The notes below the pieces were generated by a model that had not been told where the DNA came from, did not search any database, and saw only the letters and a program-made list of their open reading frames with translations. A DNA stretch of 61,956 nt from Deltaproteobacteria bacterium (GTDB lineage Bacteria; Myxococcota; SpSt-1050; JACRCP01), in the NCBI GenBank assembly GCA_016218965.1, contig JACRCP010000146.1:1-61956 (forward strand), given 5' to 3'. Position numbers and translations under genes: made by a program. Below, piece after piece: positions 35,658 to 41,177 of this stretch; position 1 is the first letter of the stretch; every line of letters starts with the position of its first letter.

Positions 35658-36788
35658 ATGAAAATGGACACGTCTCTTGGGGACCTGAGAGCCGAATTGC
35701 ACAAGATCAACCATTCGATCCTCGACCTCCTCTGTCGGCGCGCGCAACTCGTCACGGAGGTGCTCGCGGTCAAGGAAAAGGAGGACATCCCCCTCTACGT
35801 CCCCGAACGCGAACGCGAGATGCTCGACGATCTCGCACGACAAAACCCGGGGCCGTTCTCCGACGACACCGTCAGGCACCTGTTCAGGGAGATCTTCCGC
35901 GCGTCAGTGTCGCTCATGGAACAGAAAAAGATCGAAACTCTCCGCGTGAGCCGCGATTCGCACGGCGCCGACCGCGTGATTTCGGTCGGTCGGCACGAGA
36001 TCGGGCGCGGACCCGTGATCATCGCCGGGCCGTGCGCAGTGGAGAGCGCCGAGCAGATGGAAGAGGTGGGGCGGGGGCTTTCAAGGCTTGGCGTGCGGTT
36101 CCTTCGGGGGGGCGCGTTCAAGCCCCGGTCATCGCCTTACTCGTTTCAGGGACTCGGCGAGCCTGCTTTGAGGCTCCTCCGCGACACCGGCGAACGCCAC
36201 GGGATGGCCACGGTGACCGAGGTGATGGACACGCGGGCGGTCGGGCTGGTTTCTGAACATTGCGACATCCTCCAGATCGGCGCACGCAACATGTACAACT
36301 ACGACCTCTTGCGCGAGGTGGGGCGCACGCGCAAGCCGGTGCTTCTCAAGAGGGGAATCTCGGCGACCATCGACGAGTTCCTGTGGGCCGCCGAGTATGT
36401 CGTGTCGGGCGGGAACGAGGACGTGATCCTTTGCGAGCGCGGCATCAGGACGTTCGAGACCCAGACGCGGAACACCCTGGACATCTCGGCGGTCCCGATT
36501 CTGCGAAAGGCGAGCTTCCTTCCCGTCATCGTGGACGTGAGCCACGCCGCCGGCCGGAAGGACATCCTCGCCCCGCTCGGACGGGCGGCGCTCGCGGCGG
36601 GGGCCAACGGGCTGATGGTGGAGGTACACCCTTTCCCGGCGGTCGCCCGCTCCGACAGCCAGCAGCAGCTCGATCTGCACGAATTCGCCCGGTTCCTGGG
36701 TGAACTGGCGCTTGAGCGCACCGGCACGCCGTTCGCGCCGGAAGCGTTCGCGCCGCGCGCGGCGCCGGTGCGGCAACTCGAAGGATAG
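35658..36788 (+). CDS. Bifunctional chorismate mutase (AroQ N-domain) / type I-beta DAHP synthase
   Basis: N-terminus LRAELHKINHSILDLLCRRAQLVTEVLAVKEKEDIPLYVPEREREML (AroQ CM). Then VIIAGPCAVES..LRGGAFKPRSSPYSFQGLG..MDTRAV..LQIGARNM..KRG..ERGIRTFE..DVSHA (KDOPS-like DAHPS). Confidence 0.92.
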   Translation: MKMDTSLGDLRAELHKINHSILDLLCRRAQLVTEVLAVKEKEDIPLYVPEREREMLDDLARQNPGPFSDDTVRHLFREIFRASVSLMEQKKIETLRVSRDSHGADRVISVGRHEIGRGPVIIAGPCAVESAEQMEEVGRGLSRLGVRFLRGGAFKPRSSPYSFQGLGEPALRLLRDTGERHGMATVTEVMDTRAVGLVSEHCDILQIGARNMYNYDLLREVGRTRKPVLLKRGISATIDEFLWAAEYVVSGGNEDVILCERGIRTFETQTRNTLDISAVPILRKASFLPVIVDVSHAAGRKDILAPLGRAALAAGANGLMVEVHPFPAVARSDSQQQLDLHEFARFLGELALERTGTPFAPEAFAPRAAPVRQLEG

Positions 36789-36802
36789 GAGGCGCGCGCG
36801 AC

Positions 36803-39161: not shown

Positions 39162-39182
39162 CAAACGTTCCACGAATCCCGG

Positions 39183-41177
39183 ATGTTAAATGTCCAATAT
39201 CCAATGTCCAATAACGTAAAAACGGCGATCGACAGAGGGGTTGCGAACCTCGTTTCGAGGCAAGACGCCGAGGGCGCGTGGCGAGGCGAGTACGGCGGCC
39301 CGATGTTCCTTGTGCCGATGTACGTCGCGGCCTGTTGCATCGCGGACGCAAAGATCCCTGAAGCACGCAAGACCGGAATGGTGAGGTACCTCCGCAGCGC
39401 GCAAAATCCGGACGGGAGCATCGGCCTCCACTCCGAGGGACCAGGGTGTATGTTTACTTCGGTCCTGTGCTACGTCGCCCTGCGAATTCTCGGCGCGGGC
39501 CGCGACGACGCCTCGGCCGCGAAGATGCGCCGGTGGATTCTTGACAACGGCACGGCCCTCGGCGCCGCAAGTTGGGGCAAGTTCATGCTGGCCGTCCTCA
39601 ACCTCATCCCGTACGAAGGCATCCACCCCGTGACGCCCGAGCTCTGGCTCCTGCCGTACGCGGCGCCGTTCCACCCCGGGCGGCTCTGGTGCCACGCCCG
39701 GCAGGTCTATCTGCCGATGGCGTACCTGTACGGGACGAGGGCGCAGATGCCCAAAAACGATCTCGTTTTGGCCATCCGGGCCGAAATATATGACAGGCCC
39801 TACGAGCAGATCCCTTTCGCGGAGCACCGCGACACCGTCGCCCCCTGTGACAACCTCCAACCCGTGACGCCGCTGCTCCGCCTTGCGAATCGCGTGGCCA
39901 ATCTCTACGAGCGCCTGCACAGCCGGGCCTTGCGCGCCCGGGCGCTGGAGGAGGCATTCGGACACGTCGAGTTTGAGGACTCCGTCACCGGCTACATCGA
40001 CATCGGCCCCGTGAACAGCGTGCTCAACGCCCTGGTCCACCATTTCCGAAACCCCGGATGCGAGGCCGAACGGAGGAGCTTCGAAGGGCTCGACGCCTAC
40101 ATCTGCGACCGGCCCGACGGCGTCATGCTCAACGGGTACAACTCGACCGCCGTCTGGGACACCGCGTTCGCCGCACAGGCGATCCTGGCGGCGTGCGGCG
40201 CCGACGGGCACAGGGACGTCCTCGCCCGCGCCCAAGGGTTCCTGCGCGACAACCAGATTCGCGGCGACGTACCGGAGGGCCCGCGCCGTTACCGCCACGC
40301 CCAGAAAGGCGGCTGGTCGTTCGGCAACCGCGACAACGGCTGGCCCACGTCGGACTGCACGGCCGAAGGGTTCAAGACCGTTCTGGCACTCGAAGGAATG
40401 GCCGCGGACCGGACTCCCGACTCGAATTTCGAAGATGCCATAGGCCTCATCCTCTCGTTCCAAAACAGCGACGGCGGCTGGGCCACGTACGAGAAGACCC
40501 GCGGGGGCCGCTGGCTCGAACTGCTGAACCCCTCGCAGGTGTTCAGCAACATCATGATCGAGCACTCATACGTCGAGTGCACGTCGGCCTGCGTCCAGGC
40601 CCTCTTGAAGGCGCGGACGCGGTTCCCCGGCCGCTTCGATCGCGAAATCGATCGGGCGGTGCGCGCCGGGGCGGGGTTCATGAAAAGGGCCCAGCGCGCC
40701 GACGGGTCGTGGGAGGGGTCGTGGGGCGTCTGCTTCACATACGGGACGTGGTTCGGGGTTTGGGGCCTGCTCGCGGCCGGCATCCCCCAAAACGCCCCCG
40801 AGATTCGCCGGGCCGCGGGTTTCCTCATGCAGAACCAGAACCCGGACGGCGGCTGGGGGGAGAGCTACGTCAATTGCCTCAAGAGGCGATGGATCCCGCG
40901 CCAGCCGAGCACGGCAGTCCAGACCTCGTGGGCGCTCATGGCGCTCGCGCGCGCGGGACTGGCAGGCACGGCTCAGGCCCGCCGCGCGGCACGGTTCCTC
41001 GTCGATCGACAGGATGGGAAGGCGGGCTGGCCCCGCGAGTCGATGGCCGGGGTGTTCAACCGCACGGTGCTCATCAACTACGACAACTACCGGCACTATT
41101 TCCCGGTATGGGCGCTGGCGTTGTACGCGGGAAGGAACGGTGTGTCGGAAACGGCGGGACGAGGCGACGACTCGTAG
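39183..41177 (+). CDS. Oxidosqualene cyclase (sterol-type triterpene cyclase), not squalene-hopene cyclase
   Basis: OSC-specific blocks: WRGEYGGPMFLVPMYV (compare GDYGGPLFLLPG), GRLWCHARQVYLPMAYLYG (compare MWCHCRQVYLPMSY), VWDTAFAAQAIL, and KGGWSFGNRDNGWPTSDCTAEGFK (catalytic SDCTAE, not the SHC DxDDTA). Multiple QW motifs (QNSDGGWATYE, QNPDGGWGESY). Start ATG 39183 or 39204. Confidence 0.9.
   Translation: MLNVQYPMSNNVKTAIDRGVANLVSRQDAEGAWRGEYGGPMFLVPMYVAACCIADAKIPEARKTGMVRYLRSAQNPDGSIGLHSEGPGCMFTSVLCYVALRILGAGRDDASAAKMRRWILDNGTALGAASWGKFMLAVLNLIPYEGIHPVTPELWLLPYAAPFHPGRLWCHARQVYLPMAYLYGTRAQMPKNDLVLAIRAEIYDRPYEQIPFAEHRDTVAPCDNLQPVTPLLRLANRVANLYERLHSRALRARALEEAFGHVEFEDSVTGYIDIGPVNSVLNALVHHFRNPGCEAERRSFEGLDAYICDRPDGVMLNGYNSTAVWDTAFAAQAILAACGADGHRDVLARAQGFLRDNQIRGDVPEGPRRYRHAQKGGWSFGNRDNGWPTSDCTAEGFKTVLALEGMAADRTPDSNFEDAIGLILSFQNSDGGWATYEKTRGGRWLELLNPSQVFSNIMIEHSYVECTSACVQALLKARTRFPGRFDREIDRAVRAGAGFMKRAQRADGSWEGSWGVCFTYGTWFGVWGLLAAGIPQNAPEIRRAAGFLMQNQNPDGGWGESYVNCLKRRWIPRQPSTAVQTSWALMALARAGLAGTAQARRAARFLVDRQDGKAGWPRESMAGVFNRTVLINYDNYRHYFPVWALALYAGRNGVSETAGRGDDS
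39189..39216. repeat. AT-rich 14-bp tandem doublet aatgtccaatatcc/aatgtccaataacg spanning the cyclase start region
   Basis: Direct reading. Each unit carries an ATG: 39190 is out of frame (9-codon ORF) and 39204 is in frame with the cyclase. Confidence 0.8.

Follow-up and report, generated by a model that had tools for sequence, protein, structure and literature searches.

A U32-superfamily protein encoded beside an oxidosqualene-type cyclase in uncultured bacteria is a candidate prephenate-dependent, oxygen-independent replacement for squalene monooxygenase

The window analysed here is the whole stretch of 61,956 nucleotides of contig JACRCP010000146.1 from a Deltaproteobacteria bacterium assigned to the Myxococcota. 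On its plus strand it carries an operon of four genes, encoding a bifunctional chorismate mutase/DAHP synthase (CM-DAHPS), a U32-like protein, a GGR-family flavoprotein and an oxidosqualene-type cyclase. In a preliminary description of the locus it was proposed that the U32 protein and the flavoprotein together oxidise squalene or a related isoprenoid without O2, using prephenate supplied by the chorismate mutase (CM) domain. The coordinates of the open reading frames (ORFs) agree with the gene arrangement described there, with four co-directional genes separated by tiny gaps or overlaps and divergent from hpnC, hpnD and hpnE, which are located upstream of the operon (32232-35502, minus strand). 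The spacing is 14 nt between the CM-DAHPS and U32 genes and 21 nt between the flavoprotein and cyclase genes. The flavoprotein ORF starts either at a TTG codon at position 37989, which gives a 71-nt overlap with the U32 gene, or at a CTG codon at position 38061, about 1 nt past the U32 stop codon.

The operon forms the right-hand part of a larger, roughly 25-kb supercluster (17.4-42.5 kb). The minus-strand arm is tightly packed, with shikimate genes interleaved with mevalonate genes, followed by a two-component pair and hpnE-hpnD-hpnC, and the cluster is closed by a gene for HMG-CoA synthase beyond the cyclase gene. According to the domain annotation of the window, the supercluster encodes all enzymes needed to reach both prephenate and squalene from central metabolism, and the interleaving of the genes on one strand confirms the proposed wiring of the complete shikimate pathway to the isoprenoid genes. 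To our knowledge, none of the steps up to prephenate or squalene requires O2. No prephenate dehydratase or dehydrogenase, and no enzyme of the phenylalanine or tyrosine branch, was annotated across the 62-kb window. The arrangement is far beyond chance and recurs in dozens of species-level genomes.

The cyclase scored 558 bits against human lanosterol synthase (1w6k) versus 172 bits against squalene-hopene cyclase (SHC). It exceeded the cut-off of the TIGR01787 model (593 bits, cut-off 322.7) and remained under that of the TIGR03463 model for 2,3-oxidosqualene cyclases (721 bits, cut-off 851). The protein contains the single-Asp motif TSDCTAE and retains residues D455, C456, C533, H232 and Y503 (human numbering), which we take to be the epoxide-protonating aspartate and its partners. 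The sterol-type signatures noted earlier are therefore present, and we place the cyclase in a divergent clade of the oxidosqualene cyclases (OSCs). Given the OSC-type scores and the retention of D455, C456 and C533, it is predicted to need an oxygenated substrate. Positions 381, 449 and 453 (human numbering) are Y, N and T, which by our understanding fits neither the lanosterol nor the cycloartenol typing pattern, so that the product of the cyclase is not predictable.

We examined the window for a squalene monooxygenase (SQMO) that could provide such a substrate, using the catalytic domain of human SQLE (100% identical to PDB 6c6n) as query in a phmmer search of all six-frame ORFs of at least 100 amino acids. 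The sole match was the ORF of the GGR-family flavoprotein (E = 0.27), and the Pfam SE domain (PF08491) was absent from all annotated genes of the window. Both scans bear out the view that nothing in the window resembles SQMO.

The U32 protein matches the Pfam family PF01136 with 38.8 bits (cut-off 22.4), and the match is confined to residues 86-151, while the matches of its relatives extend up to positions 2-231 of the model. No NCBIfam family matched the window protein, and the relatives scored 19-27 bits against the TrhP equivalog model, the cut-off of which is 534. A profile built from the family matched TrhP of E. coli with 52 bits, RlhA with 31 bits and UbiU with 19 bits (18.7) and gave no significant match to UbiV. 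The AlphaFold2 model of the protein is a beta/alpha barrel (pLDDT 76.7, pTM 0.81) with a loop of low confidence at residues 183-207. Its best Foldseek match in the PDB is Mk0906 (5d88; E = 1e-6, target-normalised TM-score 0.67), which is also matched by the family profile at the sequence level (E = 3e-4).

Two groups of cysteines are conserved among 115 representatives of the family. The first (C181, C185, C211 and C215; CX3CX25CX3C) occupies the position that corresponds to the U32 [4Fe-4S] motif, for which the spacing in TrhP and RlhA is CX6CX15CX3-4C. The [4Fe-4S] cysteines of E. coli TrhP, RlhA and UbiU are found at positions 169-232, and the first cysteine of the family aligns with C169 of RlhA. 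C181, C185 and C215 were kept in 112-115 of the representatives and C211 in 76. The second group (C359, C364, C367 and C370; CX4CX2CX2C) is located near the C-terminus, was kept in 110-113 representatives and is additional to the cysteines of the E. coli U32 enzymes. Based on the PF01136 match, the 5d88 fold and the lack of an equivalog match, we assign the protein to a separate, uncharacterised subfamily of the U32 superfamily with a second putative Fe-S site. The comparison with characterised members proposed earlier thus places it outside UbiU, UbiV, TrhP and RlhA, with scores far below the equivalog cut-offs.

The best 120 homologues of the U32 protein were 73-93% identical to it, and the named sources among them were proteins from metagenome-assembled genomes (MAGs) of Myxococcota, Deltaproteobacteria or Pseudomonadota, annotated as U32 peptidase or PrtC-like collagenase. 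The wider subfamily, with members that are 33-45% identical to the window protein over the full length, comprised 1572 clusters (50% identity) at E < 1e-3 and 398 clusters at E < 1e-30. The nearest outgroups (P0122-P0124) are located on short contigs with uninformative neighbours. Other subfamily members have B12-radical-SAM enzymes encoded around them. In one such case (P0182; loci L086 and L087) the U32-subfamily member is fused to a methyltransferase of the DVU_1556 type and surrounded by five radical-SAM genes, four of which are B12-binding; judged from its gene content, the cluster looks like an anaerobic tailoring cluster.

To examine the conservation of the gene order, we scanned one genome per GTDB species with the U32 protein as seed. 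This yielded 73 species representatives that carry the U32 protein at 64-86% identity, all of them MAGs, with labels that include Myxococcota/Deltaproteobacteria, Spirochaetota/Leptospirales, Fibrobacterota and Chitinivibrionales and with G+C contents of about 49-74%. For 53 loci, 2.5 kb or more of downstream sequence was available, and 38 of these had an OSC-type cyclase within 3 kb downstream of the U32 gene. Counting all loci, 45 had the two genes in tandem, separated by a median of 23 nt. The U32 protein was markedly better conserved than the cyclase, with mean identities to the window of 73% and 54%, respectively. The cyclase motif was [ST]DCT[ASG]E in 42 of the cyclases and SDTTAE in three from Fibrobacterota, and the SHC-type DxDD motif was not seen in any of the U32-adjacent cyclases, all of which retain the single-Asp motif.

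Recurrent neighbours of the U32-cyclase pair were genes for FPP synthase, IDI2, GHMP kinases, MDD and a thiolase with an OB-fold protein, while in loci of the Leptospirales type the pair was placed among DXS/DXR genes. In a Fibrobacterota MAG, the U32, GGR and cyclase genes stood alone as a cassette, flanked by transposase and toxin-antitoxin genes. As illustrated by the Leptospirales-type and Fibrobacterota loci, the pairing survives the loss of the remaining synteny. Conservation of the U32-cyclase synteny in other genomes was thereby confirmed across several phyla. According to the preliminary description, a canonical SQMO elsewhere in the genome, nesting within the known U32 clades and a lack of conserved synteny with cyclases would together have spoken against its proposal; we found conserved synteny and no such nesting.

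Some of the related loci had features of their own. The Fibrobacterota cyclases with the SDTTAE motif (L058, 12406-14355; L060; L065) have a threonine in place of the cysteine partner of the catalytic aspartate and form a deep, separate clade. A Leptospirales-type MAG (L062) encodes the sole DxDD squalene-hopene cyclase that we found (2117-4018, minus strand), at a distance of 6 kb from a U32-OSC pair, and may on sequence grounds make both hopanoid-type and sterol-type products. Locus L008 contains two U32 copies (10001-11287 and about 19666; 79% and 71% identity to the window) on one 3.5-Mb contig, with an IS91-type transposase gene following the first copy and no nearby cyclase. Proteins of the DUF3419 family were encoded near the U32-cyclase pair in 14 loci (L045, 5106-6356, and 13 others) and DUF116 proteins in eight (L027, 16320-17153, and seven others).

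The source names of the U32-bearing loci include fen, Black Sea 150 m, Guaymas, Zodletone, deep mines, groundwater and digester, which we read as low-oxygen habitats. These habitats and the genomic context of the wider subfamily fit an anaerobic role.

The flavoprotein encoded between the two genes in the window turned out to be the variable component. The profile check placed it in the GGR family, with 186 bits to TIGR02032 (cut-off 158.8) and 32.9 bits to GGR_cat, and it contains no squalene epoxidase domain. The best specific family after the GGR superfamily model is MenJ (105 bits). It carries the motifs KPCGGG and YGWLFP; we take KPCGGG and YxWxFP to be GGR motifs of the reductase type. 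The GGR gene was found between the U32 and cyclase genes in only 15 of 59 loci and was missing from the other 44. Homologues of at least 40% identity all came from metagenomes or MAGs, with no cultured organism among the named sources of the matches listed, and several of them are probably located on the same contigs as U32 genes. A GGR homologue from Myxococcota that is clustered with sterol genes is the sterol C-24 reductase Bsr, characterised from Sandaracinus and placed next to the MenJ reductases (bioRxiv 10.1101/2024.11.01.621555).

Since the flavoprotein is dispensable for the conserved unit, retains the reductase motifs, lacks an SE domain and has a precedent in Bsr, it is probably an accessory, Bsr-like isoprenoid reductase and not part of the oxidation. 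It is most improbable that it represents an O2-dependent squalene epoxidase that has diverged, or that the U32 protein depends on it as a partner in the oxidation. Such a role would fit with the FAD_binding_3 fold that it has in common with SQMO, with its position in the 15 loci, which include the distant Fibrobacterota cassette, and with the near restriction of its homologues, among the matches listed, to MAG contigs that also carry U32; it does not fit with the 44 loci without the gene, the marginal match to human SQLE or the affinity to MenJ and Bsr. The preliminary idea of a joint U32-flavoprotein system therefore stands for the tie of the U32 protein to the cyclase and to chorismate mutase, which was upheld in the comparative tests, and falls for the flavoprotein as a part of the oxidising system.

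The genes sqmo and osc are adjacent in most bacterial genomes (PMC7306690). As an independent test of the association, we scanned metagenome contigs from JGI with an alignment of the cyclases and classified the neighbours for the best 80 loci. U32 alone was present in 34 of these, SQMO alone in 27, both in one and neither in 18 (Fisher p = 2e-8), and a restriction to the 40 loci with at least 1.5 kb of upstream and 3 kb of downstream sequence gave 20, 16, one and three loci, respectively (p = 3e-7). Most of the U32-linked cyclases are related and form a single clade, so that the complementarity is in part phylogenetic and the p-values overstate the independence of the loci. Only one of the 62 loci with either gene contained both. 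All eight sampled SQMO neighbours contained the Pfam SE domain (64-137 bits). The U32 gene occupies the usual place of SQMO beside the cyclase.

In a neighbour-joining tree of 125 cyclases, the U32-linked enzymes fell into a large clade and a second, deep one made up of Fibrobacterota and L052. Two further U32-linked cyclases, those of L071 and L105, were singletons inside SQMO-linked clades, and in both loci the orientation is divergent. Based on these separate clades and singletons, the tree topology points to at least three or four separate U32-cyclase associations, i.e. the association arose more than once. The conservation of the U32-cyclase operon across phyla and its alternation with SQMO make a strong case that the U32 protein is functionally tied to the oxidosqualene-type cyclase.

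We also examined the link to prephenate. In the first gene of the operon, the CM_2 domain covers residues 10-86 and the DAHP_synth_1 domain residues 115-347, and the match to the NF009239 model for bifunctional DAHP synthase/chorismate mutase (495 bits, cut-off 279) identifies the protein as a member of the AroA(Q) type. The chorismate mutase residues R11, R28, K39, R51, E52 and S84 (E. coli PheA numbering) could be aligned and are all retained. In the U32-seeded loci, CM-DAHPS was encoded directly upstream of the U32 protein in 36 of 67 cases. In a sister clade with 57-62% identity (L105 and L082), the U32 gene is part of a shikimate operon with the order CM-DAHPS, U32 and EPSP synthase, which in L082 (P0121, 62% identical) continues with genes for DHQ synthase, chorismate synthase and shikimate kinase and in L105 is divergent from a cyclase of the SQMO-clade type. 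Moreover, the 924-residue protein P0153 (L079, 3179-5953) is a natural fusion of Anth_synt_I_N, Chorismate_bind, CM_2 (473-551) and U32 domains without a DAHPS domain; its chorismate-binding domain is TrpE/PabB-like, and a glutamine amidotransferase gene is located directly upstream. From the adjacency, the fusion and the shikimate operons, the U32 protein is linked to chorismate mutase, as had been suggested.

This link would carry little weight for substrate supply if the CM domain were only the feedback-regulatory domain of a type I-beta DAHP synthase, the shikimate genes were ordinary and the association with U32 reflected co-regulation. The protein is an ordinary member of its family and about half of the U32 loci have no adjacent CM-DAHPS, but we consider this explanation rather doubtful: the catalytic residues are intact, so that prephenate is predicted to be formed regardless of any regulatory role, the CM_2-U32 fusion exists without a DAHPS domain, and no phenylalanine or tyrosine branch enzyme is encoded in the window. 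Furthermore, shikimate genes were seen with the U32 type only: CM-DAHPS accompanied 10 of the 35 U32-type loci but none of the 27 SQMO-type loci in the cyclase-seeded sample.

The characterised U32 enzymes perform O2-independent hydroxylations (PMC10990095, PMC6599085, PMC5727448). Prephenate was identified as the oxygen donor for the hydroxylations by UbiU/V with 18O labelling (PMC10990095), and TrhP and RlhA genetically require prephenate (PMC10990095, PMC6599085, PMC5727448). By analogy, we consider it probable that the U32 protein is a prephenate-dependent enzyme that acts in the same pathway as the cyclase. We lean, with modest confidence, towards the more specific interpretation that it takes the place of squalene monooxygenase, depending on prephenate and not on O2. 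Gene identities, the operon and its conservation, the complementary distribution of U32 and SQMO and the chorismate mutase link are observations; the substrate and the formation of an epoxide, as well as the need for prephenate and the independence from O2, are what we infer from the genomic context and the family. Whether a widespread group of uncultured Myxococcota, Spirochaetota-type and Fibrobacterota-type bacteria makes oxidosqualene, and hence protosterol-type triterpenoids, without O2 by means of a prephenate-using Fe-S U32 enzyme is, in our assessment, evenly balanced.

In the proposed pathway, acetyl-CoA would be converted to isoprenoid precursors by the mevalonate pathway, and HpnC, HpnD and HpnE would form squalene from these. 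The U32 Fe-S protein would then replace the flavin-dependent SQMO and oxygenate the terminal double bond of squalene without O2, with the oxygen atom coming from prephenate that is supplied by the co-clustered shikimate pathway and the CM domain encoded upstream. The reaction may be written as squalene + prephenate + oxidised acceptor -> 2,3-oxidosqualene + phenylpyruvate + CO2 + reduced acceptor, which is formally the stoichiometry proposed for the UbiU/V hydroxylation. In this two-electron oxidation, the hydroxyl group released by the decarboxylative aromatisation of prephenate would be captured and closed to the epoxide, and the two cysteine groups could relay the two electrons to an acceptor. 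The OSC-type cyclase would cyclise the epoxide, and the GGR flavoprotein, where present, would saturate an isoprenoid double bond, most likely in the sterol side chain as Bsr does.

Several observations weigh against the assignment of the U32 protein as a squalene epoxidase, in addition to the partly phylogenetic nature of the complementarity with SQMO. Four loci (L040, L042, L045 and L124) hold U32, cyclase and a canonical SQMO with an SE domain together, which may hint at another job for the U32 protein. In 15 of the 53 loci there was no cyclase directly downstream of the U32 gene, which in L005 is followed by a Dus tRNA-modification gene. The neighbourhood of the U32 relative P0121 in L082 includes genes for a UbiE-like methyltransferase and an ABC1 kinase, with no cyclase within 8 kb. 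SQMO could also be encoded elsewhere in the U32-bearing genomes, as in Nannocystaceae, in which the Osc gene is not co-localised with Smo. The substrates of known U32 enzymes are aromatic or heteroaromatic sp2 carbons, so that epoxidising an isolated trisubstituted alkene would be a chemical novelty, and in vitro hydroxylation has still to be demonstrated for any U32 enzyme (PMC10990095). Finally, Hoshino and Gaucher (PMC8237579) connect the mevalonate pathway of this lineage to an aerobic way of life.

The four loci with SQMO form a single sub-lineage nested within the U32-linked cyclase clade, and the SQMO module is placed about 5 kb downstream of the U32-cyclase pair. An SQS_PSY-family gene adjoining SQMO was confirmed in L045, and clustering suggests the same for two more of the loci. 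The relevant ORFs are located at 16681-18150 in L040 and at 16744-18228 and 18231-19526 in L045. The closest relatives of these SQMOs from beyond the sub-lineage share only 55-69% identity with them, a hint that the module was acquired. It may represent a second, O2-dependent route that is kept in parallel, by analogy with UbiI/H/F beside UbiU/V in E. coli. Hence, the claim that no canonical epoxidase accompanies the operon is valid for the window and for the loci of most relatives, but not for these four.

We searched for SQMO homologues elsewhere with the L040 protein as query. None of the best 120 could be traced to U32-bearing contigs, which include a 5.18-Mb chromosome; this is an indirect and weak proxy, since 144 weaker matches fall outside these 120 and the contigs of the query itself are not among them, while the same proxy does work for the GGR gene. 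A scan for P450 and Rieske signatures gave no hits in either the U32-type or the SQMO-type loci and provided no contrast between them.

The co-occurrence of U32 and SQMO in four loci, and the fact that SQMO need not adjoin Osc in Myxococcota, are the main reasons to consider that the U32 protein is a prephenate-dependent, O2-independent triterpenoid oxygenase that acts, by hydroxylation or another oxidation, on the cyclised product or on another isoprenoid intermediate, with SQMO encoded elsewhere. The later tailoring steps of known sterol pathways need O2, and an anaerobic substitute would be useful there too. We regard this as unlikely, albeit as the most serious of the alternatives, since the near mutual exclusion with SQMO beside the cyclase points to replacement and not to an extra step, and the minimal conserved unit in the Fibrobacterota and Leptospirales-type loci is U32 and cyclase alone. 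Known U32 chemistry is moreover directed at sp2 carbons and not at the sp3 methyls of sterol tailoring (PMC10990095).

The L005 and L082 neighbourhoods and the other loci without a nearby cyclase would fit a housekeeping hydroxylase of RNA (TrhP/RlhA-like) or quinones (UbiU/V-like) that is placed beside CM-DAHPS for its prephenate and beside the cyclase by accident, and TrhP and RlhA are indeed the nearest characterised families. This is very unlikely given the scores far under the equivalog cut-offs and the conserved extra cysteine group. It is also at odds with the close adjacency to the cyclase across Myxococcota, Spirochaetota-type and Fibrobacterota-type MAGs with unrelated flanks, with the recovery of U32 in 35 of 80 loci by the cyclase-seeded search and with the independent associations in the cyclase tree.

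Returning to the interpretation of the U32 protein as an epoxidase, the closest functional parallel is UbiU/UbiV (YhbU/YhbV in E. coli; PMC10990095). On this interpretation, the similarities are membership in the U32 superfamily, a cysteine motif after the barrel, an isoprenoid-tailed lipid as substrate, the link to prephenate and the role as an anaerobic counterpart of a flavin monooxygenase, and both routes are retained in E. coli as in the four loci described here. The differences are that UbiU and UbiV form a heterodimer while the new U32 protein is single, that it barely matches UbiU and does not significantly match UbiV, that it has a different first and an additional second cysteine group, that we saw no UbiT/SCP2 partner, and that the UbiU/V substrate is an aromatic ring whereas epoxidation of an isolated alkene is proposed here.

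The sequences of TrhP, which modifies tRNA U34, and RlhA, which modifies 23S rRNA C2501 (PMC6599085, PMC5727448), are the most similar among characterised enzymes, with a dependence on the shikimate pathway that is proposed for the new protein as well and, for RlhA, an aligned first cysteine, but in most loci no RNA-related gene adjoins the new U32 gene, which is placed in an operon with a triterpene cyclase. SQMO/SQLE has the same position beside the oxidosqualene cyclase, where it alternates with U32, and the same proposed product. The folds are unrelated, since SQMO is a FAD-dependent Rossmann monooxygenase and the new U32 protein a TIM-barrel with putative Fe-S sites, for which no requirement for O2 or NADPH is proposed.

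A non-orthologous replacement of SQMO in sterol synthesis has a precedent in AltSQE, which is an enzyme of the fatty-acid-hydroxylase superfamily that still uses O2 and is unrelated to U32. It is presented in PMC12324236, with reference to Pollier et al. 2019, as an alternative squalene epoxidase of diatoms and other eukaryotes. The window GGR protein resembles Bsr in its GGR family, its MenJ-like affinity, the clustering with an Osc gene in Myxococcota and the variable presence; it differs in belonging to a MAG-only clade, judging from the relatives listed, and is likened to Bsr from the published description. A literature search, which covered papers available without subscription, retrieved no paper that links U32 or prephenate-dependent enzymes with squalene, oxidosqualene or sterols. 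We propose a prephenate-linked, O2-independent U32 oxygenase that would have a new substrate class and a new reaction.

The promoter elements provide a further view of the operon. The divergent region between hpnC and CM-DAHPS is 155-209 bp long and contains two sigma-54-type -24/-12 elements (Table 1). In 38 of 70 related loci, the motif TGG-N8-TTGC preceded the first operon gene (CM-DAHPS, or U32 in loci that lack CM-DAHPS), mostly at a distance of 24-65 nt; the background frequency in random 250-nt windows is 3.3%. A sigma-54-like element also precedes the HMG-CoA synthase gene (42444-42459, minus strand), and a weaker one precedes the IDI2-mevalonate genes (25002-25017, minus strand). A response regulator and a kinase adjoin the U32 operon in 39 loci. 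Scans of the operon for sigma-70 promoters and terminators gave results at chance level. The sigma-54 elements, the enhancer-binding regulator and the GAF-PAS kinase indicate that expression of the operon is conditional, as far as motifs and domains can tell, and the whole supercluster may be one sigma-54 regulon run by the embedded kinase and regulator.

The features of the supercluster are listed in Table 1. The gene for the FMN_dh-family protein was found again in 16 of the related loci, and the gene for HMG-CoA synthase was found again downstream of the cyclase in 23. An ORF of 281 amino acids (18877-19722) was discarded as a member of the cluster, having no Pfam match and no counterpart in related loci.

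Table 1. Features of the supercluster and its left border in the 61,956-nucleotide window.
Feature	Position	Strand	Evidence and remarks
tRNA gene	17293-17378	-	Rfam; left border of supercluster, overlaps annotated start of ORF 15804-17372
3-dehydroquinate synthase	17452..18537	-	PF01761, PF24621; left end of supercluster
HMG-CoA reductase (mevalonate pathway)	19750..21111	-	PF00368, 334 bits
GHMP-family kinase, probably phosphomevalonate kinase	20924..22000	-	GHMP_kinases_N and _C; role from context
Diphosphomevalonate decarboxylase	21892..23196	-	MVD-like_N 191 bits, MDD_C; true start probably internal (overlaps neighbour)
GHMP-family kinase, probably mevalonate kinase	22875..23819	-	GHMP_kinases_N and _C
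FMN_dh-family protein, putative type-2 IPP isomerase	23813..25006	-	PF01070, 81 bits
Chorismate synthase	24898..25896	-	PF01264, 346 bits
EPSP synthase	25893..27146	-	PF00275, 288 bits
Shikimate dehydrogenase-shikimate kinase fusion	27112..28419	-	Shikimate_dh_N, Shikimate_DH, SDH_C, SKI
Type I 3-dehydroquinase	28416..29096	-	PF01487, 110 bits
Sigma-54-dependent response regulator (enhancer-binding protein)	29080..30699	-	Response_reg, Sigma54_activat, HTH_8
Sensor histidine kinase	30549..32228	-	GAF_2, PAS, HisKA, HATPase_c
HpnE-type amine-oxidase flavoprotein, putative last step of squalene synthesis	32232..33866	-	PF01593, 153 bits; role from position after two SQS_PSY genes
HpnD-type squalene/phytoene synthase-family enzyme	33590..34498	-	PF00494, 229 bits
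HpnC-type squalene/phytoene synthase-family enzyme	34435..35502	-	PF00494, 223 bits, domain from residue 78; real start probably ATG at about 35448
Sigma-54-type -24/-12 element facing hpnCDE (TGGCACGGTCCGTGCA)	35486..35501	-	One mismatch to consensus
Sigma-54-type -24/-12 element (TGGTCCGGCTATTGCA)	35623..35638	+	20 nt upstream of CM-DAHPS start codon
Bifunctional chorismate mutase/DAHP synthase (AroA(Q) type), proposed prephenate source	35658..36788	+	CM_2, DAHP_synth_1, NF009239
U32-superfamily Fe-S protein (putative cluster), uncharacterised subfamily; proposed squalene-oxygenating enzyme	36803..38059	+	PF01136, fold, synteny
GGR-family flavoprotein, probable accessory reductase	37989..39161	+	TIGR02032, GGR_cat; Rossmann fold begins near 38070
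Oxidosqualene-type triterpene cyclase	39183..41177	+	SQHop_cyclase_N and _C, TSDCTAE
HMG-CoA synthase	41096..42553	-	HMG_CoA_synt_N and _C; right end of supercluster

Apart from the tRNA gene, Rfam gave no matches in the whole window. Two very large ORFs on the minus strand are unrelated to the operon: one of 2522 amino acids with Big_13 and FG-GAP repeats (49824-57392) and one of 1444 amino acids with a Met-zincin signature (11608-15942).

In summary, the U32-cyclase system is real and strongly conserved. The best explanation of the gene content is that the supercluster is a self-contained, sigma-54-regulated unit, the product of which would be a cyclised C30 triterpenoid, a lipid of the protosterol type. 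The arrangement suggests that bacteria may form sterol-type lipids with no need for molecular oxygen. In textbooks, sterol synthesis is regarded as O2-dependent because of the epoxidation of squalene, and the interpretation of steranes from ancient rocks builds partly on this need (Summons 2006 and Gold 2017, both cited in PMC7306690 and in the preprint by Lee and Welander). If the proposed reaction is true, sterol-type biomarkers would lose their O2 requirement at the first committed step, which would weaken the inference of O2 for protosterol-type biomarkers. Protosteroids are reportedly the subject of work by Brocks from 2023; the bacteria described here would be a candidate anaerobic source for these and for arborane-type fossils.

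The U32 protein would be the first U32 enzyme that acts on an alkene and the first squalene epoxidase that uses neither flavin nor O2, prephenate-dependent oxygen transfer would be extended from aromatic hydroxylation to alkene epoxidation, and a route to anaerobic triterpenoid production would become available for engineered hosts. Even if the assignment as an epoxidase fails, the protein represents a large, uncharacterised U32 subfamily of about 400 clusters (E < 1e-30), with two cysteine groups and members located in biosynthetic contexts.

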